A stretch of DNA of 58,384 bases from Bacteroidales bacterium (GTDB lineage: Bacteria; Bacteroidota; Bacteroidia; Bacteroidales; UBA932), in the NCBI GenBank assembly GCA_017616475.1, contig JAFZYD010000085.1, positions 1 through 58,384 of the forward strand, written 5' to 3'. Under the pieces are notes generated by a model. It was not told where the DNA came from, made no database searches, and was given only the letters and a program-made list of their open reading frames with translations. Both the position numbers and the translations under genes were made by a program. Below, one piece after another: positions 39,642 to 53,849 of this stretch. How positions within the stretch are numbered: position 1 is the first letter of the stretch; each line of letters begins with the position of its first letter.

Positions 39642-41282
39642 ATGACTCCTCATCTCCGCATCGCGGCCGCGGCAACCGTCCTGGCCTTCTTCAGTTTTTT
39701 AATGGGATGCAGCACCCCCACCCCTCCGGAATTTGACTACGACGCCCTAAACCAGCAGGCGGCGGCGGAATATCTGCAGCCGGTGCACCCCGGCGTCAAG
39801 GGAGAGGTCCCCTTCTGGAACGGTTATTCCTTCAAGTTCATCTACGCCCCGGCATTCGATTTTGAAGATGTCGAAGGGGCGGCGCAATATGTCTACAGTG
39901 CCACCTCGGGCGACACGAGCCTGATGTTCGCTGCCGAAAGCCCCCGCGAAGCGCTCACCCCCGTATGGAACAGTCTTCCGATTGGCCCGGTGACCCTCAC
40001 GGTGCAGGCGGTGGACGGCGATGGCCAGAGCCTGGGCTCTCCCCAAGTGCGGGAATTTGAGAGAGACAACCCGTTCACGGGCCCGTACGACCCCGCCCCG
40101 CGCGGCTACCGCGAAGCTGCCCTCAAGGCGGCGGAGTTCATCCATAAGAGCATCATCGCCCGGAATTGGATAAAAGACACCGTCCCCAGCCTGGAATATC
40201 AGCTCAACTGCTACCCCAACAAGATTTGGGGCGGCGCCATCCAGTTGGAGTGCTTCGTAGCCCGGGAGTTGCCGCAATACCGCGAGGAAGCGCTCACCGC
40301 CGCCCGCAACGCCGCCGACGCCCTTATCCGCTACGCCCAGGGCCCGGACGGCCCCCTGCCATACTTCCCGCCCACCTATTTCGGCCGCGAGGGCGACTCT
40401 CTGGTTTGGTACATTAAGCGGGTGATAGACCGCAACAAAGATCTCACGATGTTCGCCGACGCCGTTATGGCGGCCGACGGTCTGCTGGACCTCTACGACA
40501 CCACCAAAGACAAGAAATATCTCGACCACGCCTGCCGCATTGCCGAGACCTACCGTGACAAGCAGGCCGCAGACGGCTCCTGGCCCGTAAAGGTAAGCTG
40601 GAGCACCGGCGAGTCCATAACCTCGGCCCGCTGTATGCCAACCACCATACTTACGCTGGCGCAGCGGCTGCGCGACCGCTACCGCATAAAAGGTTTCGAC
40701 AATATGATTGCCGTCACAGAAGATTGGCTATGGAAGAACACCATCTCCAACTTCAATTTCAACGGCCAGTTCGAAGATGTCAACGTGGCGGACAAGGCTA
40801 CCTATCAGAACCTCACCAACTGCGTCGCGGTAGATTGCATCGATTATTTGTTGCAGAAGCGCCGCCCCACTGAGCAGGAGATTGCCTCCTGCGTGGAAAT
40901 GGCCCGCTTTGCGGAGGACCAGTTCACCCGCTGGCATTCGCCGGTCGATGAAGAGGCCGACGCGCTTTGCACCGACGCCTTCTCCACACCGTTCGTGTTC
41001 GAGCAGTACTCGTTCCAATGCCCGATAGACGACAGCACCCTTGGCGTCGCCAGAGCCTTTATGCGGGTATATCTGGCCACGGGCGACCTTCTCTCGCTGG
41101 CCAAGGCCACGGCGTTGGCAGACAGCATCGTAAAAATTCAGGACGCCGAAAGCGGCTGCATCCCCACCAGCCTGAACCAGAGCGTGAAGGACCCCATCAG
41201 CGAGCATTGGGTCAACTGCACCTTCAACAGCATTTACACCCTCCTTATGTTGGACGATATATTAAACGGAAAAATAAAATGA
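39642..41282 (+). CDS. Lipoprotein, paralog 1 of 3; predicted alpha/alpha-toroid with QW-like motifs, function unknown
   Basis: Lipobox FLMGCS. Blocks are shared with the next two ORFs (VHPG..GEVPFWN, F(K/Y)IYAP(A/V)F, NPF(T/H)GPY, FNFNGQFEDV, ARFAEDQFTRW). QW-like motif YRDKQAADGSWPVKV is present. Confidence 0.8.
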   Translation: MTPHLRIAAAATVLAFFSFLMGCSTPTPPEFDYDALNQQAAAEYLQPVHPGVKGEVPFWNGYSFKFIYAPAFDFEDVEGAAQYVYSATSGDTSLMFAAESPREALTPVWNSLPIGPVTLTVQAVDGDGQSLGSPQVREFERDNPFTGPYDPAPRGYREAALKAAEFIHKSIIARNWIKDTVPSLEYQLNCYPNKIWGGAIQLECFVARELPQYREEALTAARNAADALIRYAQGPDGPLPYFPPTYFGREGDSLVWYIKRVIDRNKDLTMFADAVMAADGLLDLYDTTKDKKYLDHACRIAETYRDKQAADGSWPVKVSWSTGESITSARCMPTTILTLAQRLRDRYRIKGFDNMIAVTEDWLWKNTISNFNFNGQFEDVNVADKATYQNLTNCVAVDCIDYLLQKRRPTEQEIASCVEMARFAEDQFTRWHSPVDEEADALCTDAFSTPFVFEQYSFQCPIDDSTLGVARAFMRVYLATGDLLSLAKATALADSIVKIQDAESGCIPTSLNQSVKDPISEHWVNCTFNSIYTLLMLDDILNGKIK

Positions 41283-42886
41283 AACGGATTGTCACCATTA
41301 TCGCCGCCGCTCTTTTGATTGCCGGCTGCAGCGACTCCGGCAAGAACGTGCTGGATTTTGACTACGACTCCCTCAACGCCCGGGCGCTGGCGGAATACGA
41401 AATTCCGGTGCACCCCGGCATACCCGGCGAGGTGCCTTTCTGGAACCAATATGCCTTCAAATTCATCTACGCCCCGGCTTTCGGGTTCGAGAAGGTGGAT
41501 GAAGCCGGCCACTACTCCTACACCGCGGAGGCGGGCGGACAGTTCTTTATTTTCACCGCCGAAAATCCCAACGAGCCCCTCACCGACATTTGGAGCGACA
41601 TTCCCGTGGGGCCGGTGCACCTTGTTGTGCAGGCCTACGGCAGCAACGGCGAGGCGCTGGGCGAGCCGCAGATACGCGATTTTTCAAAGGACGACCCCTT
41701 CCACGGCCCTTACGAAACAGAGGCTCTGGATTACGCCGCAGCCACGGTAAAAGCGGCAGAATATATCCACTTCAGTCCCATCGGACAGTTGTGGCTCAAG
41801 ACGGGCGAACCCGACCCGGAATACCGTTTCAACAGCTACGCGTGCAAGATTTGGAGCGCCACCGTGCAGTGCGAGTGCTTTTTGGCCGCCAACAAACCGG
41901 AGCTTAAGGAGGATGCGCTTGCCGTAGCCCGCGCCGCAGCCGCAGCCCTTATGAAGTATTCCCGCCCGGAAGGCGAGCCGCTGGCTTTTTTCCCGCCGAC
42001 CTACTTCAAAAGCGCGGGCGACGAGAGTCTCTCCGGTGTTCTGGACTACAACCAGGTGACCACTATGTTTGTGGAGGCGGTTTGCGCCGCCAAAGCGCTG
42101 CTGGACCTTTACGACGCCACCGGAGAGCAGCAGTATTTCGATTTCGCCCGCCATATCGCAGAGACATACCGCAATTTGCAGAGCGAGGACGGCTACTGGC
42201 CTATGAAGGTGAATTATTACACCGGGGAGCCGACCATCCCGGCGCCGTGTATGCCCACCACCATCCTTCAGTTGGCACAGCGGCTCAAAGATCAGTATAA
42301 TGTAGATGGTTTCGAAGATATGATTGTCCGGTCGGAGGCTTGGCTGTGGCAGAATACCCTGGCCACGTTCAATTTCAACGGGCAGTTCGAGGATGTCCCG
42401 GTGGAAGGGCACGCTCCGTTCCAGGACCTTACCAATTGCGTCGCGGTAGATTGCATCGACTATCTGCTGGCAAAGCCCGATCCTTCGAACGCGGAGGTGA
42501 AGGTGTGCATAGAAATGGCCCGTTTCGCAGAGGATCAGTTCACCCGCTGGAACGCGCCACTGGATGTGGCTTTCGGCAGCGAGAGCGTGCAGGACGTCCT
42601 GCCGTTCGTTTACGAGCAGTTTGTGTTCCAGGTGCCGGTGGACCACAGCACGGCCGGAGTCGCTATGGCCTGGATGCGCATCTGGGAGCAAACCGGCGAC
42701 CCGCTGGCACTGGCCAAAGCCAAGACACTGGTAGACAGTCTTGTAAAGGTTCAGCAGGAGAATGGCCGCATCCCCACAGTGATGTACAACGAAGATCCTG
42801 ACAATCACAACGATATATGGGCCAATTGCACTTGGCAGAGCATTGTTGCCCTGGACCGTTTCAACAGAATAATCAACTCAAAATAG
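41279..42886 (+). CDS. Lipoprotein, paralog 2 of 3 (same family)
   Basis: ORF 40967..42886 trimmed to ATG 41279 (MKRIVTIIAAALLIAGCS). It overlaps the paralog 1 stop in ATGA. QW-like motif YRNLQSEDGYWPMKV is present. Confidence 0.8.
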   Translation: MKRIVTIIAAALLIAGCSDSGKNVLDFDYDSLNARALAEYEIPVHPGIPGEVPFWNQYAFKFIYAPAFGFEKVDEAGHYSYTAEAGGQFFIFTAENPNEPLTDIWSDIPVGPVHLVVQAYGSNGEALGEPQIRDFSKDDPFHGPYETEALDYAAATVKAAEYIHFSPIGQLWLKTGEPDPEYRFNSYACKIWSATVQCECFLAANKPELKEDALAVARAAAAALMKYSRPEGEPLAFFPPTYFKSAGDESLSGVLDYNQVTTMFVEAVCAAKALLDLYDATGEQQYFDFARHIAETYRNLQSEDGYWPMKVNYYTGEPTIPAPCMPTTILQLAQRLKDQYNVDGFEDMIVRSEAWLWQNTLATFNFNGQFEDVPVEGHAPFQDLTNCVAVDCIDYLLAKPDPSNAEVKVCIEMARFAEDQFTRWNAPLDVAFGSESVQDVLPFVYEQFVFQVPVDHSTAGVAMAWMRIWEQTGDPLALAKAKTLVDSLVKVQQENGRIPTVMYNEDPDNHNDIWANCTWQSIVALDRFNRIINSK

Positions 42887-42887
42887 T

Positions 42888-44510
42888 ATGAAAAAGATAT
42901 TTGCAGCCATCGCGGCCGCCGTTTTGCTGGCCGCGTGCAACCAGCCGTATCAGAATCCCCTTGAAAGTTTGGACTACGACGCCCTCAACGCTCAGGCGCT
43001 GGAAGAGTATTTGTCGCCCGTCCATCCCGGTGTGCCGGGCGAAGTTCCTTTCTGGAACAAGTTTGCCACCAAGTATATATACGCTCCGGTGTTCGAGTTC
43101 GAACAGGTGGATGGTGCCGCCAATTATTGCCTTAGCATTCCCTCCGGCGGAGAGTCGCTGTTTGTTTGCAACAACGCCCCGGTCATCGCCCTCTCCCCTA
43201 TTTGGAACGAGTTGCCGGTGGGTTGGATAGAGGCGACTATGCAGGCCACCGGTGCGGATGGCATGGCGGTCGGTTCTCCCGTCGCCCTTAAGTTCGAAAA
43301 GGACAATCCTTTCCACGGCCCGTACGAACCCGCCCCCATCGGCTACCGGGAGTCGGCAATAAAGGCCGCCAAAGCGCTACACGACAGCCCGTTAGGCCAG
43401 AGTTGGACTGGAGGCAACAAACCGGACACCACATATTTCTACAATTGCTACGCCTGCAAAATCTGGAGCGGCATCGCCCAGACGGAGTGTTTCCTTGCTC
43501 GCGAGGTACCGGAATATCACGACGCCGCCCTGGCCATCGCCCGCAATGCCTGCGACGGCCTCATTGCCATTGCTCAGCCGGAAGGTGCCCCGCTGGCCTT
43601 TTTCCCTCCCACATACTACTACGGAGAGAACAACGAAATCAGCACAAGCGTGCTCCGTTTTAATGTAGGCAAGACAATGTTTCTTGAGGCGACCTATGCC
43701 GCCAACGCTTTGCTTGACCTTTACGATCTTACAAAAGAAGAGAAATACCTCGACCACGCCCTTGGCATAGCAAAGACCTATCAGAGGCTTCAGGCAGAGG
43801 ACGGTTCCTGGCCCGTGAAGGTTATGTTCGAGACAGGCGAACCGGTGAACGAGGCCCGCTGCCTTCCCGCCGACATCCTTATGCTTGCCAACCGTCTCAA
43901 GGTAAAATACGGCGTGGAAGGTTTCGACGATATGGTGGCAAAGGGCGAGAAATGGATGTGGGACAACACCATCTCAGGTTTCCACTTTGACGGCCAGTTC
44001 GAGGATGTTCCCATCGAGGACAAGGTTCCTTATCAGAATTTGACCCACTGCACCGCCGGCGACTGCGTGGAGTATCTTATGACCAAGCCGCAGCAGACTC
44101 AGAAAGACCTTGACGCCTGCATAGAGATTGCCCGCTGGGCAGAAGACCAGTTTACCCGCTGGCACTCCGAAATAGAATATGAAGCCGACGCCCTCAGCGC
44201 CGTGGACAGCGTGTTCTCTTCGCCGTTCGTCTTCGAGCAGTATCACTGGAGGAATCCCGTGGATGCCAGCATCGCCAAGGTTGCCAACAACTTTATGCAC
44301 ATCTACCACAAAACCGGCGACCTGCTTGCACTTGCCAAGGCCAAGGCTCTGGTCGACACCCTGGTCAAGATACAAGATCCCGAAACGGGTATGATGCCCA
44401 CCCTTCCCAACAGCGAGACCAAGTTCTCCCAAGATGACATCTGGGCCAACTGCGTCTTCTACAGCATCAACATCCTTATGCGTATGCACCGCATCGCCAC
44501 CGGGGAGTAG
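42888..44510 (+). CDS. Lipoprotein, paralog 3 of 3 (same family)
   Basis: Lipobox AVLLAACN, starting 1 nt after the paralog 2 stop. QW-like motif YQRLQAEDGSWPVKV is present. Confidence 0.8.
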   Translation: MKKIFAAIAAAVLLAACNQPYQNPLESLDYDALNAQALEEYLSPVHPGVPGEVPFWNKFATKYIYAPVFEFEQVDGAANYCLSIPSGGESLFVCNNAPVIALSPIWNELPVGWIEATMQATGADGMAVGSPVALKFEKDNPFHGPYEPAPIGYRESAIKAAKALHDSPLGQSWTGGNKPDTTYFYNCYACKIWSGIAQTECFLAREVPEYHDAALAIARNACDGLIAIAQPEGAPLAFFPPTYYYGENNEISTSVLRFNVGKTMFLEATYAANALLDLYDLTKEEKYLDHALGIAKTYQRLQAEDGSWPVKVMFETGEPVNEARCLPADILMLANRLKVKYGVEGFDDMVAKGEKWMWDNTISGFHFDGQFEDVPIEDKVPYQNLTHCTAGDCVEYLMTKPQQTQKDLDACIEIARWAEDQFTRWHSEIEYEADALSAVDSVFSSPFVFEQYHWRNPVDASIAKVANNFMHIYHKTGDLLALAKAKALVDTLVKIQDPETGMMPTLPNSETKFSQDDIWANCVFYSINILMRMHRIATGE

Positions 44511-44544
44511 CATACGGCGGGCAAATACTGTTTCGCAAGTGCGT

Positions 44545-44770
44545 CCGCTCCGGGCGTAAGCCTCCGCTTGCAAGTTTTTCTCTGGCGAAGATCCGCCCCT
44601 GAAAAACTTCAAGCTCCGGACTCTTTTACGCCCGTTCGCTCTTCCCCTGCAGCCCCGCCAAACCGCCCTCCGGCCCCAAAATGGCCAAGAAACCCCGTCG
44701 CGACGCAACCCGCCACCCCGTGAAAGCCGGCAGCCGGCCACCCCCCGAAAGGCAGCTCCTCCTGTCGCCG
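44545..44770. repeat. Left arm of a ~225-bp imperfect inverted repeat flanking the R-M/NERD cassette
   Basis: The reverse complement of 44545-44770 aligns by eye with 48589-48809. Both ends match strongly (CGGCGACAGGAGG..CTTTCACGGGGTGGCGGGT and GTCCGGAGCTTGAA..GGCGGATCTTCGCC..CTTGCAAGCG..CCCGGAGCGG); the centre is weaker. The arm contains its own hairpin at 44566-44614. Confidence 0.8.
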
Positions 44771-44888
44771 CGAAAACCGATGCGGTTTGGCGGGGCGGTG
44801 GACTGCGGCAATCCTGCTAGCTATTACCAACTGAGAGAATAACGCAGAAAAAGATTAATAATCTCTTCCTTCCGATCTATTCTTTTTA

Positions 44889-44896
44889 TAACTTTG
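44889..44896 (+). promoter_or_regulatory. -7 promoter box (TAacTTTG) upstream of the first methyltransferase
   Basis: TAACTTTG lies 17 nt upstream of ATG 44914. No clear -33 TTTG is present. Confidence 0.35.
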
Positions 44897-44913
44897 TCGG
44901 AAAAGATGTGCTT

Positions 44914-45825
44914 ATGAAATTGTTTGAAGAAACGACACAAGCCCGTCCGTTCATAAAATGGGTTGGAGGGAAGACGCAATTGCTAGACGAGGTGCGAGAA
45001 TCGCTGCCACGCGATTTCGCAGAGCGCAAGCATTTCACATACGTAGAGCCATTTGTTGGCGGCGGAGCCGTCCTTTTCTGGATTCTTCAAACTTACCCGA
45101 ACATTGAGTATGCAGTCATTAACGACATTAACGAGGAATTAATTTGCACATATCGAGTCATCAAAAGCGACGTTGAATCTCTTATTGAAGCATTATCCAT
45201 AATACAAGACGAATACTCCAGATTAGACACCAACGCAAGAAAGGAGTATTATCTGGCTAAGCGAGCTCTATTTAATACTAAACAGACCTCTCAAATTGAG
45301 ACTGCCACACTTTTTATTTTTCTGAATCGAACCTGCTTCAACGGGCTCTATAGGGTCAATTCTAAGGGCGAATTCAATGTACCTCACGGGAAATATGCAA
45401 ATCCGCGCATCTGTGACGCATCAAACCTTATAGCGGTCTCAAAAGTCCTTCAAAAGGTAGAAATCCTTTGTGGTGACTTTGCCCAGACTGGCAAATATGC
45501 TAATACAAGCACATTGTTCTACTTGGACCCGCCTTATAAGCCAATCACGGAAACATCGTCGTTTACCTCATACGCACAAGGCGGCTTCGATGATTCCGAA
45601 CAGATTAGACTCCGTGACTTCTGTAATCAAATTTCCACCGCTGGGGCTCTGTTCGTTGCCAGTAACTCAGATCCCACAGAAGTACACTCCGAAGAAACAT
45701 TCTTTGATAGAATCTATAATCATTTTTTCATCAAACGGGTATCAGCTGCTCGTATGATAAACTCCGACCCCAACGGGCGCGGGTGTATATCGGAGCTGAT
45801 GATTTCTAACGTAATAAATGCTTAA
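44914..45825 (+). CDS. Dam-family (alpha-class) N6-adenine DNA methyltransferase, M.MboIA/DpnM-like, predicted GATC specificity
   Basis: The ORF track starts at GTG 44908, but ATG 44914 is more likely. Motifs are PFIKWVGGKTQLL, motif I VEPFVGGGAV, NRTCFNGLYRVN, and motif IV LDPPY near the C-terminus. Confidence 0.9.
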   Translation: MKLFEETTQARPFIKWVGGKTQLLDEVRESLPRDFAERKHFTYVEPFVGGGAVLFWILQTYPNIEYAVINDINEELICTYRVIKSDVESLIEALSIIQDEYSRLDTNARKEYYLAKRALFNTKQTSQIETATLFIFLNRTCFNGLYRVNSKGEFNVPHGKYANPRICDASNLIAVSKVLQKVEILCGDFAQTGKYANTSTLFYLDPPYKPITETSSFTSYAQGGFDDSEQIRLRDFCNQISTAGALFVASNSDPTEVHSEETFFDRIYNHFFIKRVSAARMINSDPNGRGCISELMISNVINA

Positions 45826-45827
45826 AT

Positions 45828-46685
45828 ATGAGGGATTTTGATGTGTGGATGGCTGGTTTTCGCACAGCCATCTCAGGATATAAGTATTATACCGATTTTG
45901 AGAAGGTGCACCGCAACGTCGATGCCATTAGAGTAGAACTTAATATTATGAACTCTCTTATTGGAAGTGATGATATTGAGACTGATTTTGTCGCATTGTG
46001 CAGAAGGTACCCTGAGATTCTAAAGTGTATTCCTATTCTTCTTGCCAAGCGCGAGACTGAGATTCTTACAGTCGATTTTGACGGCGAGCACCTATTCAGT
46101 TTCAAGAAAAAGAATTACCCGATAGAAGACTATATTGTCTTTATGCAGGAAACCGGACTTTTCGATCTTATGAGAAATAAACGCATTCATAGTCTCGTTG
46201 ACTATGTCACTGGCGTAGAAACTGGATTAGACTCGAATGCCCGCAAAAACCGTGGCGGTCACGCAATGGAAGATCTTGTGGAGAGCTATCTTGTTAGGGC
46301 TGGACTGCAAAAAGGCAAGACTTACTTTAAGGAAATGTATATTCACGACATCGAAAAGAAATGGGATGTTGATCTATCTTGTATATCTAATGAGGGTAGT
46401 ACTGAGAAAAGGTTCGATTTTGTTATTAAGCGGCCCAGGATGATATATGGCATTGAGACCAACTTTTATACCAGCGGCGGCTCAAAATTAAATGAAACAG
46501 CTCGTAGCTATAAGACAATAGCACTGGAGACCAAGGACCTTCCATACTTCAAATTTGTATGGATTACAGACGGCCGTGGCTGGGGCTCCGCTCGTAACAA
46601 TCTTAAAGAGACCTTTGACGTGCTGGAGAATCTGTATAACATTATGGACCTCGATGAGGGTGTAATATTCACCAATCTTGTTTAG
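45828..46685 (+). CDS. Type II restriction endonuclease of the DpnII/MboI family (GATC)
   Basis: Long conserved blocks match what I recall of R.DpnII: YYTDFEKV, LNIMNSLIGS, YPEILK, LVDYVTGVETGLDSNARKNRGGHAMED, KRFDFVIK, NFYTSGGSKLNETARSYK, WITDGRGW, NNLKETFD. Confidence 0.88.
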   Translation: MRDFDVWMAGFRTAISGYKYYTDFEKVHRNVDAIRVELNIMNSLIGSDDIETDFVALCRRYPEILKCIPILLAKRETEILTVDFDGEHLFSFKKKNYPIEDYIVFMQETGLFDLMRNKRIHSLVDYVTGVETGLDSNARKNRGGHAMEDLVESYLVRAGLQKGKTYFKEMYIHDIEKKWDVDLSCISNEGSTEKRFDFVIKRPRMIYGIETNFYTSGGSKLNETARSYKTIALETKDLPYFKFVWITDGRGWGSARNNLKETFDVLENLYNIMDLDEGVIFTNLV

Positions 46686-46690
46686 TGAGT

Positions 46691-47572
46691 ATGCCTATTG
46701 CATATTACAAATCACCTGATAAGAACTTCACCCTCTTGAAGGGAGATTGTATCAAACTACTGAATTCATTTGATTTCAAGTTCGATATGATCTTCGCAGA
46801 TCCGCCTTATCACCTTTCAAACGGAGGAATCAGCATACAGAGTGGCGTTCCAGTTTCCGTAAATAAAGGTAAGTGGGACAAGTCTCAAGGGTTCGAAGAA
46901 GACTACAAATTTGACAAGTCCTGGCTTGCCGCTTGTCGCACGCACTTGAAGTCAGACGGTACAATATGGGTCAGCGGCACATACCACAATATTTTTTCCG
47001 TAGCCCGCTGTCTTACAGAACTTGATTTCAAGATACTCAATTGTATAACTTGGGTTAAAACAAATCCTCCACCCAATCTATCTTGTCGATACTTCACATA
47101 CTCAGCAGAATACATACTGTGGGCTCGTAAGGAACAGAAAGTAGCCCACTACTACAACTATGAGTTAATGAAGGATATTAACGGCGGCACACAGATGCGT
47201 GATGTCTGGACTCTACCAGCTATTGCAAAATGGGAGAAGTCCTGCGGGAAGCACCCAACCCAGAAACCGCTCTGCGTACTTTCTCGTATAATACAAGCAT
47301 CCACATGGCCAGGTGCATGGGTACTTGACCCATTCACAGGCAGCAGTACGACTGGTATAGCAGCCAATCTTCTTGGACGCCGATTCCTTGGCATTGACCA
47401 GAGTGAACCATTTCTTGAAATAAGTAGGGCTCGCAGAGAGGAGTTGAACAACGCTGACCGTCGATGCGAATTGTTGGAGAAACTAGAAAAACAAGCCAAA
47501 CTCTTCCAAGATAATGATATTCGCGTGCTAGGCGAGCCCGAGGCATATTACGGCCCAGAACTTCCTTTCTAG
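46691..47572 (+). CDS. Beta-class N6/N4 DNA methyltransferase (M.MboIC/DpnA-like second methylase)
   Basis: The track starts at GTG 46685, but ATG 46691 is more likely. Motif IV (IFADPPYHLSNGG) precedes motif I (VLDPFTGSSTTGIAA), giving the beta-class order. Confidence 0.88.
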   Translation: MPIAYYKSPDKNFTLLKGDCIKLLNSFDFKFDMIFADPPYHLSNGGISIQSGVPVSVNKGKWDKSQGFEEDYKFDKSWLAACRTHLKSDGTIWVSGTYHNIFSVARCLTELDFKILNCITWVKTNPPPNLSCRYFTYSAEYILWARKEQKVAHYYNYELMKDINGGTQMRDVWTLPAIAKWEKSCGKHPTQKPLCVLSRIIQASTWPGAWVLDPFTGSSTTGIAANLLGRRFLGIDQSEPFLEISRARREELNNADRRCELLEKLEKQAKLFQDNDIRVLGEPEAYYGPELPF

Positions 47573-47586
47573 TATTGTTTCTTTCT

Positions 47587-48339
47587 ATGGCCTTTTCCCC
47601 TTACATAATAGGCATCCTCCTTTTCATAGGGCTATTTACCCTTTTCCTTAGAAGGGGTGAGTTGAGGGGTAAGATAGGTGAATCTTTAGTATCGAATAAG
47701 TTGGATAGGCTACCCAAAGACAAATATAGGGTACTGAACAATGTTACTATACCTACGCCAAAAGGCAGTTCTCAAATAGACCATCTGGTCATCTCAATTT
47801 TTGGCATTTTCGTCATAGAAACAAAGAACCTAAAGGGCTGGGTTTATGGTGGCGAGCAGAGCGAATACTGGACGCAAAACATATACGGCAAGAAATACCA
47901 ACTCTATAACCCCATCTTGCAGAATGCCGGTCACATCCGTGCCCTTCGCCGTATACTCAAAGAATACGAACCACTTCCCTTTTTTTCGATAGTAGCATTC
48001 TCAGGCAGGGCTGACCTCAAAGTCAAAATAGAAGATGCCTGCGTTGTCTATATGGGCCAGATACTTTCTGTGATTCGGCAATTTGAAGCTAGCCGCCTGA
48101 CATGGGGGCAGGTCAACTCCATCTACGGTGCAGTCATTTCGGCACAAATCGAACCAAGCAGAGAAAACAGCAGGCAGCACAAAGAAGACATATACAATGC
48201 TCGCGTCCAAAAGAACGAAGCCTTTACTTCTGGTAGATGTCCACGTTGCGGCGGCAAACTTGTACTTCGCTCTGGTAAATACGGAAAATTTTACGGGTGT
48301 TCCAGCTACCCAAAATGCCGTTATACACATCCGTATTGA
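47587..48339 (+). CDS. Membrane-anchored NERD (nuclease-related domain) protein with C-terminal topoisomerase-type C4 zinc ribbon
   Basis: The track starts at TTG 47575, but ATG 47587 is more likely. N-terminal TM helix is IIGILLFIGLFTLFL. NERD/PD-(D/E)xK-like core is QIDHLVISIFGIFVIETKNLKGW. C-terminus is CPRCGGKLVLRSGKYGKFYGCSSYPKCRY. Confidence 0.8.
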   Translation: MAFSPYIIGILLFIGLFTLFLRRGELRGKIGESLVSNKLDRLPKDKYRVLNNVTIPTPKGSSQIDHLVISIFGIFVIETKNLKGWVYGGEQSEYWTQNIYGKKYQLYNPILQNAGHIRALRRILKEYEPLPFFSIVAFSGRADLKVKIEDACVVYMGQILSVIRQFEASRLTWGQVNSIYGAVISAQIEPSRENSRQHKEDIYNARVQKNEAFTSGRCPRCGGKLVLRSGKYGKFYGCSSYPKCRYTHPY

Positions 48340-48393
48340 CATAAGAGCTTTCCATTTTCCATATGCACTATTGATGTTTGTCCGCTTTGACCT

Positions 48394-48547
48394 CAACCCG
48401 AAATTCGCAGGCTGCAAATGGTGGCCGCTGGTGGGGGTCTGGGGCGGGTTGTTGCAGCCTGCGGGGCGATTTGGCTGCGGAGGCTGCGCGGTAGTCCCTC
48501 ACAGGGGCTTCTGAAGCACATTTCCGCAGCCTCAGAATTTCGGGTTG
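48394..48547. repeat. ~154-bp GC-rich hairpin-forming element closed by a 22-nt inverted repeat
   Basis: CAACCCGAAATTCGCAGGCTGC (48394-48415) pairs with GCAGCCTCAGAATTTCGGGTTG (48526-48547), with 20 of 22 positions complementary. There is an internal alternative pairing between CGCAGGCTGCAA and TTGCAGCCTGCG (48451-62). Confidence 0.75.
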
Positions 48548-48588
48548 ACAGCCGCTGCCGGCGCCCCGGCAAAATGCTCTTCTTATGA

Positions 48589-48809
48589 GGCGACAGGAGG
48601 GGCTTCCTTTCGGGTGGTGGCAGACGGAGGGCTTTCACGGGGTGGCGGGTGGCGCGGTTGTGCCGGTATTCGGCCATTGGGGAACGTGTGAGCATTTTGC
48701 CGGGTGAAGACGAATAGCGTGCGGGCAGAAATGGTCCGGAGCTTGAAAGTTTTTAAGGGCGGATCTTCGCCCAAGAAAACTTTGCAAGCGCAGGCTCTGC
48801 CCGGAGCGG
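48589..48809. repeat. Right arm of the ~225-bp imperfect inverted repeat
   Basis: See the left arm (44545-44770). The internal hairpin is retained (CTTGAAAGTTTTT..AAGAAAACTTTGCAAG). Confidence 0.8.
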
Positions 48810-48927
48810 GCCATAAATAAGCCCGTAATTCCTGGCCGGCAGGGCAAAAAACGCCAGCGGGGCCATAAATAACCCCGTAATTCCTGGCCGGCAGGGCAAA
48901 TATCGGGAGCGGGCCAGGGAAAACGCC
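48805..48927. repeat. Tandem 51-52-bp direct repeat (2 full copies plus 1 truncated) upstream of the 725-aa ORF
   Basis: Copy 1 spans 48805-48855 (AGCGGGCCATAAATAAGCCCGTAATTCCTGGCCGGCAGGGCAAA...). Copy 2 spans 48856-48906 (AGCGGGGCCATAAATAACCCCGTAATTCCTGGCCGGCAGGGCAAA...). The truncated copy spans 48908-48927 (AGCGGGCCAGGGAAAACGCC). Confidence 0.8.
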
Positions 48928-49022
48928 CTTCATTATGGCCGGCGGTGCATATTTCGGGGACGTTTGGATTTGTGCGGCGAAAGTGGTAAGTTTAGGGGGT
49001 AATTCAGAAACGTTTTGGCTTT

Positions 49023-51200
49023 ATGAAAACACCCAGACAGTGCGACGTGTACGTCCTGATGAGGATTTATAACGACAATTCGAACCCTCTGTTCGAGAGC
49101 AACCTGCGGCAGGCCTTGGAATCGGTGGCGAAAAACCGGGACAAATATGGCGACCGGGGCCGCGTTCGGCTTATAGTATTCGACGACTCGGGGCAAGACG
49201 TTCACAAAGCCAAACTGCTGGAGATGCTTCGCGGCTACGGCTTTGACTTAAAAGACGGGACGCTGGACTACACCAATCTGCCGGAGCGCAAGCAATCGGC
49301 CTATGGTCTCTTTTACCTGCGCAAACAATTCGTCCGGAAGGCCAAGGATGGCGACATCGCGATTATTCTGGACCAGGACGACGAACTTGCCCAAGACGCC
49401 ATCCGCAGCATAGCGGGCGCTATGCCGTGCTGCGGCGTGGTGCTCTCCCCTTTCGATATGAATGGCCCGGACGGCTTGAACAACGTTGATGCCGCCCGGC
49501 GTCTGCACAACAACCTGACGAGCAGCCTCGCCCGCAGCAAGCGCGGCAATGCTGACCCTGATATTGTAATGGCAGCCAGTATGTGCTGGACAAAGGCCTA
49601 TTCCAGGGAAGCTATGCAGATATATGTCGATGCCCTGGAGAGTTTTTTAGAGCGCGAGCGCGGAGGCTGGGAGCGCTTCTTTGGCGAGCATCCGTCCTAC
49701 GACGATTTTATAGATTATTATGTCCTGCTAAGGCGCGATATCACCCTTGCCTCCGTTAAGCAGCGCACCCACGTGTACAAGAAACACGGCGCCTCCATCA
49801 CTGGCAATCCGTCCGTGGGAGATTTCCTGTACCACAGGACCGCCGCCCTCATCACCCTCATAGATCTTTCTTATTGCGATTCGGCACAACTTGTTCCGGA
49901 ATGGAAGTCGCGCCTGTTCCGCCACGTTTCCATCAAGACAATGTTCATCGAGGGGCTTCTTGCCAAGTACAGGGGCGATTTCGAGCGGGGCGACAGCAGC
50001 AAGGCCGCCTTTTCGGAGAAGACTCACAACGGGTATTTCATAAATAAGTTCTGCCGGATGGCCACTGGCCGCAGGAAACAAGATGCCAGCGACGATTTGT
50101 TCCGTTACGAGAGCACCTCCCGCGGTGCCTCCAGCGAGGGCAACTTCTGCAATTTGTTCAGCTGCAGCCAGATAAACAGCATCCAGGAATACCGTCCTGA
50201 TTTCGGCGGCGTGGAATATGCCGACAGCCGCTACATACTGCAAGTGGCAGTGGATTTAGAAAGAGGCATAATTAAGCCGGACGGCAAGAAGAAGGAGGAA
50301 ACGGAAGAAGAACTGTATGCGAAGTATGGCATCAAGGACACTCCCAACAAGCAGCGTTACAAAACTATATCCTGGATTGCCTGGTTGTTCGCGGCCACCC
50401 TCCCTCTGGCCATAGGTTTCAGTTTCTTGCCGGAGAAGTGCGGTTTGCGCACCTTCCTGCGGCCGGTTTGGGAAGCAATCACTCTGTCTAACCCGAACGT
50501 CAAGGCGGCAATGGTGTCGCTCTACGGTGTGATTGTTACTTATTTGTTCAAGAGCCGCAACGACATCCGTCTGCTTGCCAGCGAGGAGCAGTCGCAAATG
50601 AAGTTGTATTTTTCCGAGTTCGAGGATCTTATACGCCACCTGGAGGCGAATCTCAAGGTGATGATTCAGATTGTCAAGCAGATACGCGAGAAGAAATTGG
50701 ATTACCCTGCCGGCATCCATCTCACCAATCTTGCCTGGCCGTTGACCTCGTACCTGTTCTCGGACGACTTTGCAAAGATAATCAACAAGGAGCGGGTAGA
50801 CGACTTCGCCAGGTTGAAGGTGAACCTTCGCAACATAAACAACAGCTCTGCCTGGCTCGCGGAATTCGTAAGAAACGAGCGCGACCCGGAAAAGATAATC
50901 GAAGCCATCGAGTGGGAAATCGCCCGCCACTTCGGTTACTTGGTGAACTTTAAATACCTAAAAGAGAACGGTTTCCACTTTGCAAAGCAGGAAGAACTGG
51001 ACAAATACATCAACGAGAACCACGTACGCAACAGCCTGACCTCGCTCTTTATGGATTATTACTCCGACGAGAGCGAAGACGAGGCCCGGAAGACCGCCAC
51101 CCGCATGGACTTCGTAGAAAAATACATCACGATGTACTACGACGACCGCCGTATGAAACGCAACGTCCTCGTATACAAAAACTCAGACAGCGTACGATAA
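49023..51200 (+). CDS. Orphan multidomain protein: N-terminal GT-A (family 2-like) glycosyltransferase fold, two TM helices, uncharacterised alpha-helical C-terminal domain
   Basis: GT2-like blocks are present (VYVLMRIYNDN..LRQALESV, LIVFDDSGQD, DxD-type IAIILDQDDEL). Hydrophobic helices lie at residues ~447-469 (TISWIAWLFAATLPLAIGFSFLP) and ~494-510 (AAMVSLYGVIVTYLF). I see no recognisable motif in residues 511-725. Confidence 0.7.
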   Translation: MKTPRQCDVYVLMRIYNDNSNPLFESNLRQALESVAKNRDKYGDRGRVRLIVFDDSGQDVHKAKLLEMLRGYGFDLKDGTLDYTNLPERKQSAYGLFYLRKQFVRKAKDGDIAIILDQDDELAQDAIRSIAGAMPCCGVVLSPFDMNGPDGLNNVDAARRLHNNLTSSLARSKRGNADPDIVMAASMCWTKAYSREAMQIYVDALESFLERERGGWERFFGEHPSYDDFIDYYVLLRRDITLASVKQRTHVYKKHGASITGNPSVGDFLYHRTAALITLIDLSYCDSAQLVPEWKSRLFRHVSIKTMFIEGLLAKYRGDFERGDSSKAAFSEKTHNGYFINKFCRMATGRRKQDASDDLFRYESTSRGASSEGNFCNLFSCSQINSIQEYRPDFGGVEYADSRYILQVAVDLERGIIKPDGKKKEETEEELYAKYGIKDTPNKQRYKTISWIAWLFAATLPLAIGFSFLPEKCGLRTFLRPVWEAITLSNPNVKAAMVSLYGVIVTYLFKSRNDIRLLASEEQSQMKLYFSEFEDLIRHLEANLKVMIQIVKQIREKKLDYPAGIHLTNLAWPLTSYLFSDDFAKIINKERVDDFARLKVNLRNINNSSAWLAEFVRNERDPEKIIEAIEWEIARHFGYLVNFKYLKENGFHFAKQEELDKYINENHVRNSLTSLFMDYYSDESEDEARKTATRMDFVEKYITMYYDDRRMKRNVLVYKNSDSVR

Positions 51201-53849
51201 CTATATCCTGGCGATATCCGCTGCGGGGATCCAGCCTTGGCGGCCGTCGGAGATTTGGACTTTGAGCCAGTTGCCGACTGAGTCGAGCACACAGACTTTT
51301 GTGCCCTCGTGCAGGATGAACAGCGCCTTGCCGTCCTCGCCCGGCGAACTCTTTACGGAAGAGACGGGCAGCATTACGATGGCCTCCTTCTGGCTCACTA
51401 TGTCGTGCCGCTCGCTAAGGGCTAAAATCCAGGCCGAAACCGACAACAGGAACAGCACACACGCCAGCACGAAAGACAAAGTGCGCGAGCCGCGGCGGCC
51501 AAGGAACCGGAAGCCCAACAGCGCGAGTGCCACCAGCACCATAAGCGCAAGTGCGACCCACGCCCAAGCATTGCTGGAAAGCAGGTACTTTATATCGCGT
51601 ATCCACTTTACCAGTATGAACTCCGGCACTACCTCAATGCGGTCCAGCACCGATTCGCGGGCGATGGCAAGGTTGAACTTGGCGTCGTCGTAAGAAGGAT
51701 TCAACTTGAGCGCCTTCTCGTAATAAAGGATGGACTCGCCCAGCGCGCCTGTCTTATAATACGAATTCGCAATATTGTAATACAACTTGTCTGACACCAA
51801 CCCGGACTGCTCGATGTCCAGATAAGCATCCAGTGCAGCCTGATAATCACCGGAAGAATAGGCCTGCGCTGCCTGCTCCCAAGCCTGGCTGCCGGCCGCA
51901 GCGGCATTAAAACTCAAGCTCAGGGCAAACAACAGTGCGACAGCCACCGTCGCCCCCCTGGCGCCCTTTGCGCTGCGCTTAACGCCGGACTCGATGGCCG
52001 TGATGGTATCCAACGCATCCTTATACTGATTCTCCATCTGCTCCGGAGTGTAATCGGGCGCATACCGCGCCGCTTCGCAAATGGCAATAATTCCCATAAG
52101 ACTATCTATAGTGGCCTGAGGCACCCCGCGCGCGGCGAGCTGCTCGCTTATATTATCTTTGCTGAGGTCGCTGCCGGGCATAGAAAGCTTGTCGCTCACA
52201 TACCCCATAACCGCCTTGTGAAGCTCCTCGTAGTAGGCTCCGACCAGCCCCTGCTTGAGGTAATCTTTGCTGCGGCGCAGGCGCTCGGTGGCAATCTTGT
52301 TGGCGCGACGGTTGCGCATACCGGCCACGTCCGCGCGACGCTCGCGGGCCTTGCTCATAGCTGCGCCCACAATAAAGAACAGCGCCACAATTGCGGCCAG
52401 GATGGCGTAGAACGGCCACGAAGTAACAAAGAAACTGCCCTCCTTGCGCAAAGCGGGAGAACCGGTGGCGATATAGCGTATGTCGCTGCCGATGTTGCGC
52501 ACGCTCTGCCGCACGCCGCCCCCGATTCCATCGGAAGCCCCCTGTTCGGCTCCGTCAGACGAAACTTTGATGGTGACCGCCGGCGCCTCGGTGGTAACAT
52601 AGGAACCCTTGCTGATATCGTAATAACTATACTTTATTGGGCCGATGGTAAAATCGCCGTAGCTGCGGGCGATGAACGGATATTCGAACACCTTGCTGCC
52701 AGTCACGCCCGAACCGTCGCTGCGGTCCGTCGTTTTAACGTCGTACACGTCGAACTCGCTCGGGAATGAAATCTTGGGGGCGGAGAGCATTGTTACATTG
52801 CCCTTGCCGCTCACCGTCACAATGAGGCTGGAGGCCTCGTTGGCGGCAATGGAATCGTTGGCAAAGCGGGCGGTGATGGTGAACTGCCCCACCCCGCCGC
52901 CGAACGACGCAGGAGCGCCCGCCGGCAGCGGATTCACGTGCACATTGATACTACCCGTGGAGACCCGCTTGCGGATGGTTTGGTAACTGTCAAAGAAATC
53001 GTCGAAGATAGAGCGCGCGCGGCCGTTGTTTGCCCTTACGCGCAACTGGCACACAGCCTCCGCCGGCTCTATGTTTATGACACCCTCTTGCTGTGGAATC
53101 AGCATATAGCGGCGGATTACCGTGGTGTTGTATATCTTGCCGTTTATATTCTCCTTGTTGAACTCCAGATTGTTTGGAGCGTAGGTCTCCTTGCTCCAGA
53201 AACCGTTGAAGGTGGGGAGCTTGAAATCTTCGAAACCGGCAATATCCGCACGGGTATATAGCTTGAGCACAGCAGTGAGAGGCTCGCCCTTAACAGCACT
53301 TGTCTTGCTCAAATTGAGCCGCATAAAGATATCCTCGTTAGGCACAGTGCCCGTTATGGAAGGGTCCGACTGAGCTGCACCGGCGCCCTGCGAGGGCTGT
53401 TGCTGTTGGCTCTGGCCGCCGCCCTGCGACGCCTGGCCGCCCTGCTGACTCTGGCCCGCACTCTGGCCTGCCGGAGCTTCGTCCACAACCTCAACCACCG
53501 CCGTGCCGCTGGAAACCTCTGTGCCTTTTACCTTGCAGGTCGCCGCCGGAATGGTATAAGTGCCCTTGGTGTCGGCAGAAAGCAGGTAAGTGTATGTAAC
53601 AGTCTCGCTGGACTCCCGCTTGCCATTGATTATGGTCAAGTTGGAGGACGTCCCCTTTGACGGACCCCACATAAGGGTGAGGCCAGCGGGAGGTGCCCAT
53701 TCAAAATCGGTAATCTTGCCATCCGCGGTGAACACCACGCGGAACGGCTCGTCCGTGGCGACCACGCTGGGCGCCTCCATCCGGAGGCTCTGCGCGCGCA
53801 CGCCTACTGCAGCAAACAATACAAGCAAAAATGCGAGGTATCTTTTCAT
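51201..53849 (-). CDS. batD: BatD-BatE fusion protein (BatD oxygen-tolerance domain, TM, TPR repeats, TM, C-terminal SH3-like)
   Basis: BatD-like N-terminus (SLRMEAPSVVATDEPFRVVFTADGKITDFEWAPP). TPR region is present (YYNIANSYYKTGALGESILYYEKALKLNPSYDDAKFNL). SH3-like tail is GTKVCVLDSVGNWLKVQISDGRQGWIPAADIARI. Confidence 0.8.
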   Translation of the reverse strand: MKRYLAFLLVLFAAVGVRAQSLRMEAPSVVATDEPFRVVFTADGKITDFEWAPPAGLTLMWGPSKGTSSNLTIINGKRESSETVTYTYLLSADTKGTYTIPAATCKVKGTEVSSGTAVVEVVDEAPAGQSAGQSQQGGQASQGGGQSQQQQPSQGAGAAQSDPSITGTVPNEDIFMRLNLSKTSAVKGEPLTAVLKLYTRADIAGFEDFKLPTFNGFWSKETYAPNNLEFNKENINGKIYNTTVIRRYMLIPQQEGVINIEPAEAVCQLRVRANNGRARSIFDDFFDSYQTIRKRVSTGSINVHVNPLPAGAPASFGGGVGQFTITARFANDSIAANEASSLIVTVSGKGNVTMLSAPKISFPSEFDVYDVKTTDRSDGSGVTGSKVFEYPFIARSYGDFTIGPIKYSYYDISKGSYVTTEAPAVTIKVSSDGAEQGASDGIGGGVRQSVRNIGSDIRYIATGSPALRKEGSFFVTSWPFYAILAAIVALFFIVGAAMSKARERRADVAGMRNRRANKIATERLRRSKDYLKQGLVGAYYEELHKAVMGYVSDKLSMPGSDLSKDNISEQLAARGVPQATIDSLMGIIAICEAARYAPDYTPEQMENQYKDALDTITAIESGVKRSAKGARGATVAVALLFALSLSFNAAAAGSQAWEQAAQAYSSGDYQAALDAYLDIEQSGLVSDKLYYNIANSYYKTGALGESILYYEKALKLNPSYDDAKFNLAIARESVLDRIEVVPEFILVKWIRDIKYLLSSNAWAWVALALMVLVALALLGFRFLGRRGSRTLSFVLACVLFLLSVSAWILALSERHDIVSQKEAIVMLPVSSVKSSPGEDGKALFILHEGTKVCVLDSVGNWLKVQISDGRQGWIPAADIARI

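Follow-up and report, generated by a model that had tools for sequence, protein, structure and literature searches.

A gene on the forward strand of the 58,384-nt Bacteroidales contig JAFZYD010000085.1 (the whole stretch is called the window below) encodes a 725-aa protein in which a GT-A glycosyltransferase domain, a helical stalk, a transmembrane (TM) hairpin and an orphan helical domain follow one another (Table 1). Its catalytic module belongs to a known kind, whereas the C-terminal domain, the architecture and the family are undescribed, and the apparent life-style in defence islands would be new for a GT-A enzyme. We read the protein tentatively, with a probability of about 0.45, as a stand-alone conflict or phage-resistance determinant that would glycosylate a membrane-proximal target.

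Domain architecture and family

The earlier, sequence-only reading of the window had described the N-terminus as a GT2-like glycosyltransferase with a DxD motif, and this assignment was borne out. The Pfam GT2 family PF00535 matches residues 11-135 of the window protein with 21.7 bits (E=2e-4) against a gathering cut-off of 23.3, which four paralogues of the same GT module exceed (23.9-25.3 bits). A profile of 24 diverse copies of the GT module matches the GT2 structure 5HEA with E=1.1e-6, and in this match the LDxDD of the family is aligned onto VDSDD of 5HEA; a profile holding full-length family members (alignment A2) found no PDB relative. The full-length protein was also modelled with AlphaFold2 from a 19-sequence alignment (predicted local distance difference test, pLDDT, 83.8; predicted template modelling score, pTM, 0.68). 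All 28 Foldseek matches of this model in the PDB at E<=1e-3 (E 4e-6 to 1e-3) are GT-A enzymes, including hyaluronan, cellulose and chitin synthases, GalNAc-transferases, UGGT and LgtC. By fold and motifs, the domain is a real but divergent GT2-type member of the GT-A enzymes, borderline at the curated sequence threshold.

Residues D54, D55, L116-D120, W189, K191, D228, F229, D231, H250, Y252 and K254 do not vary within the family, whose members are 30-60% identical. In a wider alignment of 24 GT-module sequences, which adds multi-TM and short forms, the DxD motif and D231 remain invariant, and D55 and D228 are conserved in at least 90%. From general knowledge of GT2 motifs, we take the YDDFIDYY segment to be the equivalent of the "ED" catalytic-base motif. 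The GT-A enzyme is presumably catalytically competent, since its acidic motifs are invariant or nearly so even with the alternative architecture included. The family thus shares with GT2 GT-A enzymes such as Streptococcus GalT1 (5HEA) and SpsA the Rossmann-like GT-A fold, the N-terminal Asp-rich motif, the DxD motif aligned with that of 5HEA and the later ED-type motif. However, it is very divergent, the window protein scoring below the Pfam gathering threshold, and it carries an extra 180-aa stalk, a TM hairpin and a new 200-aa domain.

The best Foldseek matches (E 4e-6 to 2e-4) are processive GT2 synthases, namely Chlorella virus hyaluronan synthase, BcsA and chitin synthase. In processive synthases the GT-A domain is packed on interface and TM helices, and BcsA has a PilZ regulatory domain C-terminal to its TM helices. 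However, the TM-scores of these matches are only 0.22-0.30 with a very high root-mean-square deviation, and the window protein has only two TM helices, no QxxRW motif and a C-terminal domain that is not PilZ. It is not a processive synthase.

The stalk (residues 261-440) gave no match to anything known. Two TM helices had been proposed, and both were retained: TM1 is strong, and TM2 is weaker in the window protein but is supported by about half of the relatives scanned, in which a second hydrophobic segment passes the same threshold. Both soluble domains would be cytoplasmic, because the TM-plus-C-terminal protein of a naturally split form has a Lys-rich N-terminus preceding TM1 and because a GT-A enzyme needs cytoplasmic nucleoside-diphosphate (NDP) sugars.

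Modelled alone, the C-terminal domain is a confident helical bundle (pLDDT 86.7, pTM 0.80), in line with the helical C-terminus of unknown type described earlier. It has no match in Pfam, NCBIfam, PADLOC or PHROGs; 26 diverse members scanned singly against Pfam share no family in this region; sequence profiles found no relative among PDB chains; and a profile search for further fusion partners returned fragments of the same family only. The best Foldseek matches of the isolated model (E=0.2 in the PDB, 0.24 in BFVD) are all generic helical proteins, none of them HEPN. The sequence-only reading had found the segment LRNINNSSAW (residues 602-611) reminiscent of the HEPN motif. Like the HEPN RNases, the orphan domain is all-helical and has an "RN" dipeptide starting a conserved helix segment (RNINNS). 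However, the Rx4-6H motif is absent, with a nearly invariant Ser608 at the position where His is expected, and neither Pfam nor the fold comparison gives a HEPN match; the HEPN reading was therefore rejected. What is conserved is a polar constellation of E532, D535, R538, H539, H566, R603 and N604. In distant stand-alone forms of the domain, R538, H566, R603 and N604 are invariant, and E532, D535 and H539 nearly so. Judged by their spacing, the conserved residues fall on single faces of four helices, suggesting a polar pocket that may be a ligand-binding or catalytic site.

The three-part architecture (GT-A, two TM helices, new helical domain) holds by motifs, model and TM scan, and its parts also occur in other arrangements. 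The TM hairpin and C-terminal domain exist alone as proteins of 250-330 aa, and the GT module, together with the beginning of the stalk, forms the C-terminal end of 600-760-aa proteins that carry a different, polytopic membrane domain N-terminally. One lineage (loci L103-L106) has a split form, in which a GT gene of 415 aa and a gene of 276 aa for the TM hairpin and C-terminal domain lie 10 nt apart (e.g., L105 9986-12077). Because this lineage encodes the two halves as adjacent genes, they are shown, as judged by gene arrangement, to be a functional pair. A protein considered as a TM-less free C-terminal domain (P0132) is really a 5′-truncated remnant at a break in guanine-plus-cytosine (GC) content.

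The TM hairpin and C-terminal domain thus also exist on their own, both as a complete protein and under a gene of their own, and this bears on the idea of an abortive-infection (Abi) protein. In such a protein, the hairpin and the long helical domain would, when triggered, form oligomers and make the membrane permeable, while the GT-A domain would be the sensor, e.g., of a phage product or of the nucleotide-sugar state. Membrane-spanning effectors are common in known Abi systems, and the 65-residue helix extending from TM2 and the defence-island contexts described below also agree with this idea. However, all GT catalytic residues are invariant, which suggests catalysis beyond sensing alone, and this GT module also occurs joined to a polytopic membrane domain of quite another kind. 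In addition, TM2 is weakly hydrophobic and no similarity to SLATT or other 2TM effector families was found, so that an Abi protein of this kind appears improbable.

The family is small. A word-indexed search of 5.8 billion proteins gave 19 clusters, nearly all full length (680-820 aa), with no Pfam domains and no functional name, and an exhaustive search of 1.84 billion representatives gave 117 hits, 59 of them at E<=1e-30. The members come from gut and rumen metagenomes, and the sole name given to them by any source is "hypothetical protein". A comparison with the 5027 defence models of PADLOC-DB v2.0.0 gave 0 matching families at E<=1. No copy was found in IMG/VR viral contigs, INPHARED (GenBank phages), PLSDB plasmids or PHROGs, and the literature searched held no description of this architecture or of a GT-containing defence system.

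The window gene itself has an intact reading frame from its ATG start to its TAA stop. A 580-aa "truncated" database version (P0001) had raised the possibility of a decaying, non-functional remnant or an annotation artefact. This version comes from a locus of the same strain as the window (L115), where a run of N in the scaffold, corresponding to window position ~49400, causes the truncation and no frameshift is present. The full-length open reading frame is identical, in the same gene arrangement, in six independent assemblies from different samples, found via the identical BatD protein. The models are confident, and the members of the family keep their full length and share dozens of invariant residues although they are only 30-60% identical, a conservation by which the remnant idea is effectively refuted.

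The insertion next to batD

The earlier suggestion that the gene is accessory at this site was confirmed by comparison with related species, of which the best have BatD proteins 72-75% identical to that of the window. By its BatD protein, the organism is an uncultured member of the Bacteroidales of rumen type. In related species, 70 batD loci were compared, and the target gene, both methyltransferases (MTases), DpnII and NERD are missing from all of them. In the closest relatives, batD is followed by a convergent homologue of the lipoprotein gene 42888-44510 after a gap of 25 nt (L016) or 184 nt (L018), and in L023 the two genes abut or overlap. Because batD meets the lipoprotein gene directly in these relatives, the entire 6.7-kb segment 44511-51200 is extra in the window genome.

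The target stop codon (51198-51200) abuts the batD stop codon (51201-51203), which the sequence-only reading had taken for an insertion junction. The insertion itself stands, but the abutting stops are not its signature: the batD-lipoprotein junction in L023 is equally tight, so that the stop-to-stop arrangement appears to be ancestral to the site and no scar. A 24-nt direct repeat (50352-50375 / 51188-51211) considered as a target-site duplication was judged a chance match, one copy lying inside the coding region.

Pfam confirmed the neighbours named earlier, i.e., two MTases, a DpnII restriction endonuclease, a NERD plus Zn-ribbon protein and BatD/TPR/VWA proteins. It is also true, within the window, that the gene lies outside any polysaccharide locus, its neighbours being restriction-modification (R-M), NERD and Bat genes. 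The R-M/NERD cassette (44908-48339; GC 0.42-0.45 vs. 0.56 for the host) lies between two inverted repeats of ~256 nt (44545-44797 and 48562-48809; 74% identity) and looks like a discrete mobile or invertible unit. The target gene had been placed at the edge of this cassette. It lies outside the inverted repeats, 683 bp from the NERD gene, with a GC content of 0.53, and is not part of the cassette. Because of this position and different GC content, the gene and the cassette were probably acquired separately, the gene being the older or better-adapted resident. In the loci of relatives, the GC content of the gene (0.32-0.47) is lower than that of its flanks (mostly 0.50-0.58) wherever measured, and the gene is therefore probably horizontally acquired and foreign.

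The promoter of the gene presumably sits within the upstream intergenic region. A scan of this region for sigma-70 promoters and terminators gave counts equal to the shuffled expectation, Bacteroidales promoters being outside its coverage. A 52-nt tandem duplication with 90% identity between copies (48808-48911) lies just 5′ of the gene, and its 26-nt core occurs nowhere else in the window.

Some further observations concern the site. Three tandem paralogous lipoproteins of ~540 aa, with a faint GH127-like match, are encoded at 39642-44510, and related species have one to three copies in the same place. The batD-lipoprotein site is variable downstream of batD in L015, L017, L022, L024 and L025: it is occupied either by a beta-lactamase-like gene of 422 aa, in some cases accompanied by a gene of 230 aa, or by an ORF6N/KilA-N-like gene of ~200 aa. 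L025 has one weak copy of the cassette repeat (76% over 75 nt).

Table 1. Features of the 725-aa gene and its surroundings in the window (res, residues of the protein)
Feature	Coordinates	Strand	Basis or remarks
Whole gene	49023..51200	+	GT-A domain, helical stalk, TM hairpin, orphan helical domain; 725 aa
GT2-like GT-A glycosyltransferase domain, res 1-260	49023..49802	+	Pfam GT2 21.7 bits, Foldseek, module profile
D54-D55, invariant pair	49182..49187	+	Aligns with nucleotide-binding Asp region of GT2 (IND in 5HEA)
ILDQDDEL, DxD metal/NDP-sugar motif, res 115-122	49365..49388	+	L116, D117, Q118, D119, D120 invariant in family
YDDFIDYY (family consensus YEDFIDFY)	49698..49721	+	D228, D231 invariant
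Helical stalk/linker, res 261-440	49803..50342	+	Family-conserved; first ~90 residues accompany GT module in alternative architecture
TM helix 1, res 449-469	50367..50429	+	Strongly hydrophobic
TM helix 2, res 495-509	50505..50549	+	Weakly hydrophobic here; runs on into 65-residue helix
Orphan all-helical domain (putatively cytoplasmic), res 512-711	50556..51155	+	Model and no database match
SEFEDLIRHLEANLKV	50613..50660	+	E532, D535, R538, H539 share a helix face; invariance of R538 extends to distant stand-alone forms
VDDFARLKVNLRNINNSSAWL	50796..50858	+	R603, N604 invariant in all forms; S608, not His, at would-be HEPN position
Segment absent from all 70 related species between lipoprotein gene and batD	44511..51200	.	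R-M/NERD cassette and target gene
Upstream intergenic region	48340..49022	.	GC 0.57; holds right arm of inverted repeat and tandem duplication
Dam-type MTase	44908-45825		Pfam
DpnII endonuclease	45828-46685		Pfam
N6/N4 MTase	46685-47572		Pfam
NERD + topoisomerase-type Zn-ribbon protein	47575-48339		Pfam
Convergent BatD-TPR-SH3 gene	51201-53849		Pfam; followed by TPR and VWA/BatA genes

Genomic contexts of relatives

Exact-protein lookups and a metagenome scan gave 17 contexts differing at 80% protein identity. No neighbour gene is universal among them and no partner is common to more than three, while defence or conflict genes are present in about 10. The proposal that homologues are tied to defence islands is supported to this extent, as an association with defence or variable islands. 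In one hot spot between core genes, the neighbours are HEC-01 A/B, AbiEii, DUF3791/DUF3990 and a 1082-aa triple-AAA protein of the SpoVK/EccA/CbbX class with weak IetA/IteA similarity. A PARIS-like AriA/AriB pair lies directly upstream of the family gene in L008 5847-13494 (and also in L095). The island in L008, which spans 4.7 kb at GC 0.33, consists of a 129-aa gene, the AriA-like and AriB-like genes and the family gene, and is flanked by two 99.6%-identical host copies of the UDP-glucose dehydrogenase gene ugd (GC 0.57). A functional link to ugd was rejected, since the two genes are near-identical duplicates of host GC content around a low-GC island. Pairs of AAA_15/21 and DUF3226 genes resembling AbiLi/PDC-M38 are found in three contexts and NYN nuclease genes likewise in three, and HicAB also occurs; NYN flanks the family gene in L089 and L090 also. 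The closest homologue (61% identity; L110 918-4127) has an NYN gene 24 nt upstream and cas6b 2 nt downstream. A second NERD plus Zn-ribbon gene lies near the family gene in L091, and further neighbours include a TIR-like gene and STAND/NACHT-like giants.

In its rarity, patchy occurrence, low GC content, modular shuffling and location in variable hot spots, the family resembles small defence systems (Abi, PARIS, AbiL and HEC candidates), and it adjoins R-M, PARIS-like, AbiL-like, AbiE and toxin-antitoxin genes. It differs from these systems in having a GT-A catalytic domain and no sequence relation to any PADLOC model.

The triple-AAA gene, at ~1085 aa, is the immediate left neighbour in two lineages (L004 6700-9948; L089 11-1120), with 56-65% identity between loci. 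In L085 (6010-9288) it stands beside a 5′-truncated C-terminal-domain remnant; this remnant adjoins an nSTAND1 NTPase and is carried by a conjugative element. The triple-AAA gene could be a partner; alternatively, insertions might favour its 3′ flank as a hot spot.

Such recurring neighbours raise the question of a multi-gene system, in which the protein would work with the NERD/Zn-ribbon nuclease in the window and with the triple-AAA ATPase or an NYN nuclease elsewhere. No partner exceeds three of the 17 contexts. NERD plus Zn-ribbon genes are found near the family gene in two lineages with proteins that are only 34-38% identical, but that of the window belongs to the inverted-repeat-bounded low-GC cassette. 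The AAA gene is directly upstream in two lineages and beside the remnant in L085. However, its GC content is 0.55 compared with 0.38-0.41 for the family gene, and its 90%-identity cluster has 252 members compared with about 40 in the adjoining family-gene clusters. Because its cluster is several times larger, the AAA gene probably also occurs without the family gene; it is absent from the window as well, and is not supported as an obligatory partner. NYN genes adjoin the family gene in three lineages but keep to no fixed side, preceding it in some loci and following it in others. A multi-gene system is thus considered very improbable.

A crude control speaks for a conflict or phage-resistance role. 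Hidden Markov models for AAA_15/21, NYN, NERD and DUF3226 detected one or more of the four in 9 of the 17 contexts of the family (about 0.46 Mb in total) compared with 1 of 70 batD control loci (1.2 Mb), with a Fisher p=0.004 for AAA_15/21 alone; however, the control is one conserved core locus and the models were built from genes of the family loci, and the enrichment therefore shows "variable region" more securely than "defence island". Several other points weigh against such a role. The defence role would be one of guilt by association, with none of the PADLOC models matching, and we know of no described defence system that uses a GT-A enzyme. The GC content of the window copy is near that of the host (0.53 vs. 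0.56), so that it is not a recent arrival here. Several contexts have housekeeping neighbours only, and others are related to sugars. In particular, L002 1245-6785 and L094 207-5395 share a tight, low-GC, same-strand four-gene cassette with the order family gene, KdsC-family HAD phosphatase, single-SIS KpsF/KdsD-like isomerase and a 643-717-aa multi-TM paralogue of the GT module, which hints at a link to the chemistry of 8- or 9-carbon ulosonic-acid sugars. In L014 the family gene is convergent with the housekeeping genes kdsC/API/rpe/kdsA, and in L104/L105 it lies near a GT2 cluster beyond an IS66. These sugar-related contexts fit ordinary envelope-glycan chemistry.

The protein could accordingly be an ordinary accessory GT2 enzyme of the envelope that decorates a lipid-linked lipopolysaccharide (LPS), Kdo or capsule intermediate for surface variation, with the C-terminal domain as a scaffold and any effect on phage arising indirectly via the receptor. 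The retention of the KdsC/KpsF cassette in two lineages, despite an identity of only 41% between their family proteins, argues for this possibility, as do the kds neighbours in L014, the nearby GT2 cluster, and a membrane-anchored GT2-like catalytic core whose best structural matches include membrane-integrated GT2 synthases. A consistent location of homologues in glycan loci is seen in the two cassette lineages, with a third lineage beside kds genes, but not in most contexts. In the window and in most other contexts, the gene is outside glycan loci with no flippase, GT-C enzyme or polymerase alongside, and defence genes are the dominant neighbours. The strongly conserved polar C-terminal domain is also hard to square with a mere scaffold.

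A comparison with GtrB, DPMS, ArnC and CsbB bears on the same question, since they also have a cytoplasmic GT-A domain followed by two TM helices. These enzymes end soon after the TM hairpin, at ~310-330 aa; they are typically prophage-borne, and their partners are a GtrA flippase and a periplasmic transferase of the GtrC type. GtrB-type enzymes are accessory and alter phage receptors. The window protein is not of this type: its hairpin (residues 449-509) follows the 180-aa stalk and precedes a 215-aa extra domain, and structures of the GtrB/DPMS/ArnC/CsbB group are outside the top 50 fold matches. No GtrA flippase, GtrC/GT-C partner or arn/dpm operon is found among the window neighbours or the annotated neighbours of the 17 contexts, and the absence of family copies from the phage and plasmid collections searched is unlike seroconversion glycosyltransferases. 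Taken as a whole, an ordinary envelope role is possible but doubtful.

Proposed function and significance

As a stand-alone conflict or phage-resistance determinant, the protein would act alone at the cytoplasmic face of the inner membrane, because no constant partner gene accompanies it. With an NDP-sugar as donor, the GT domain would attach the sugar to a membrane-proximal acceptor. This acceptor might be a lipid-linked or LPS-type glycan precursor, the modification of which would alter a phage receptor; alternatively, it might be a component of the incoming phage or of the host. The C-terminal domain may be a regulatory, ligand-binding or partner-docking module, for which the PilZ domain of BcsA offers an analogy. 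A more specific proposal, which we hold to be unlikely, is a self-contained immune protein whose effector activity would be GT-A glycosyl transfer or NDP-sugar consumption at the inner membrane under the control of the new helical domain as a sensor; the conserved E/D/R/H/N pocket might then bind a nucleotide or a phage-derived ligand. The original suggestion of a single-gene defence or surface determinant thus remains plausible in that no obligatory partner was found, but its defence part is drawn from association and an envelope-glycan role still fits.

If the gene is a defence determinant, it would be, to our knowledge, the first with a GT-A glycosyltransferase as the core enzyme, and it would define a new protein domain with a conserved polar site. 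If it is a self-contained immune protein, glycosylation would be added to the known repertoire of intracellular defence. Its carriers are gut and rumen Bacteroidales, which are little explored for immunity genes. If the protein modifies the envelope instead, it would still represent an unnamed and structurally distinctive family, in which the GT module pairs with two alternative membrane modules and a natural split form exists. Such an envelope-modifying enzyme, travelling with defence islands, could explain strain-level differences in phage susceptibility.

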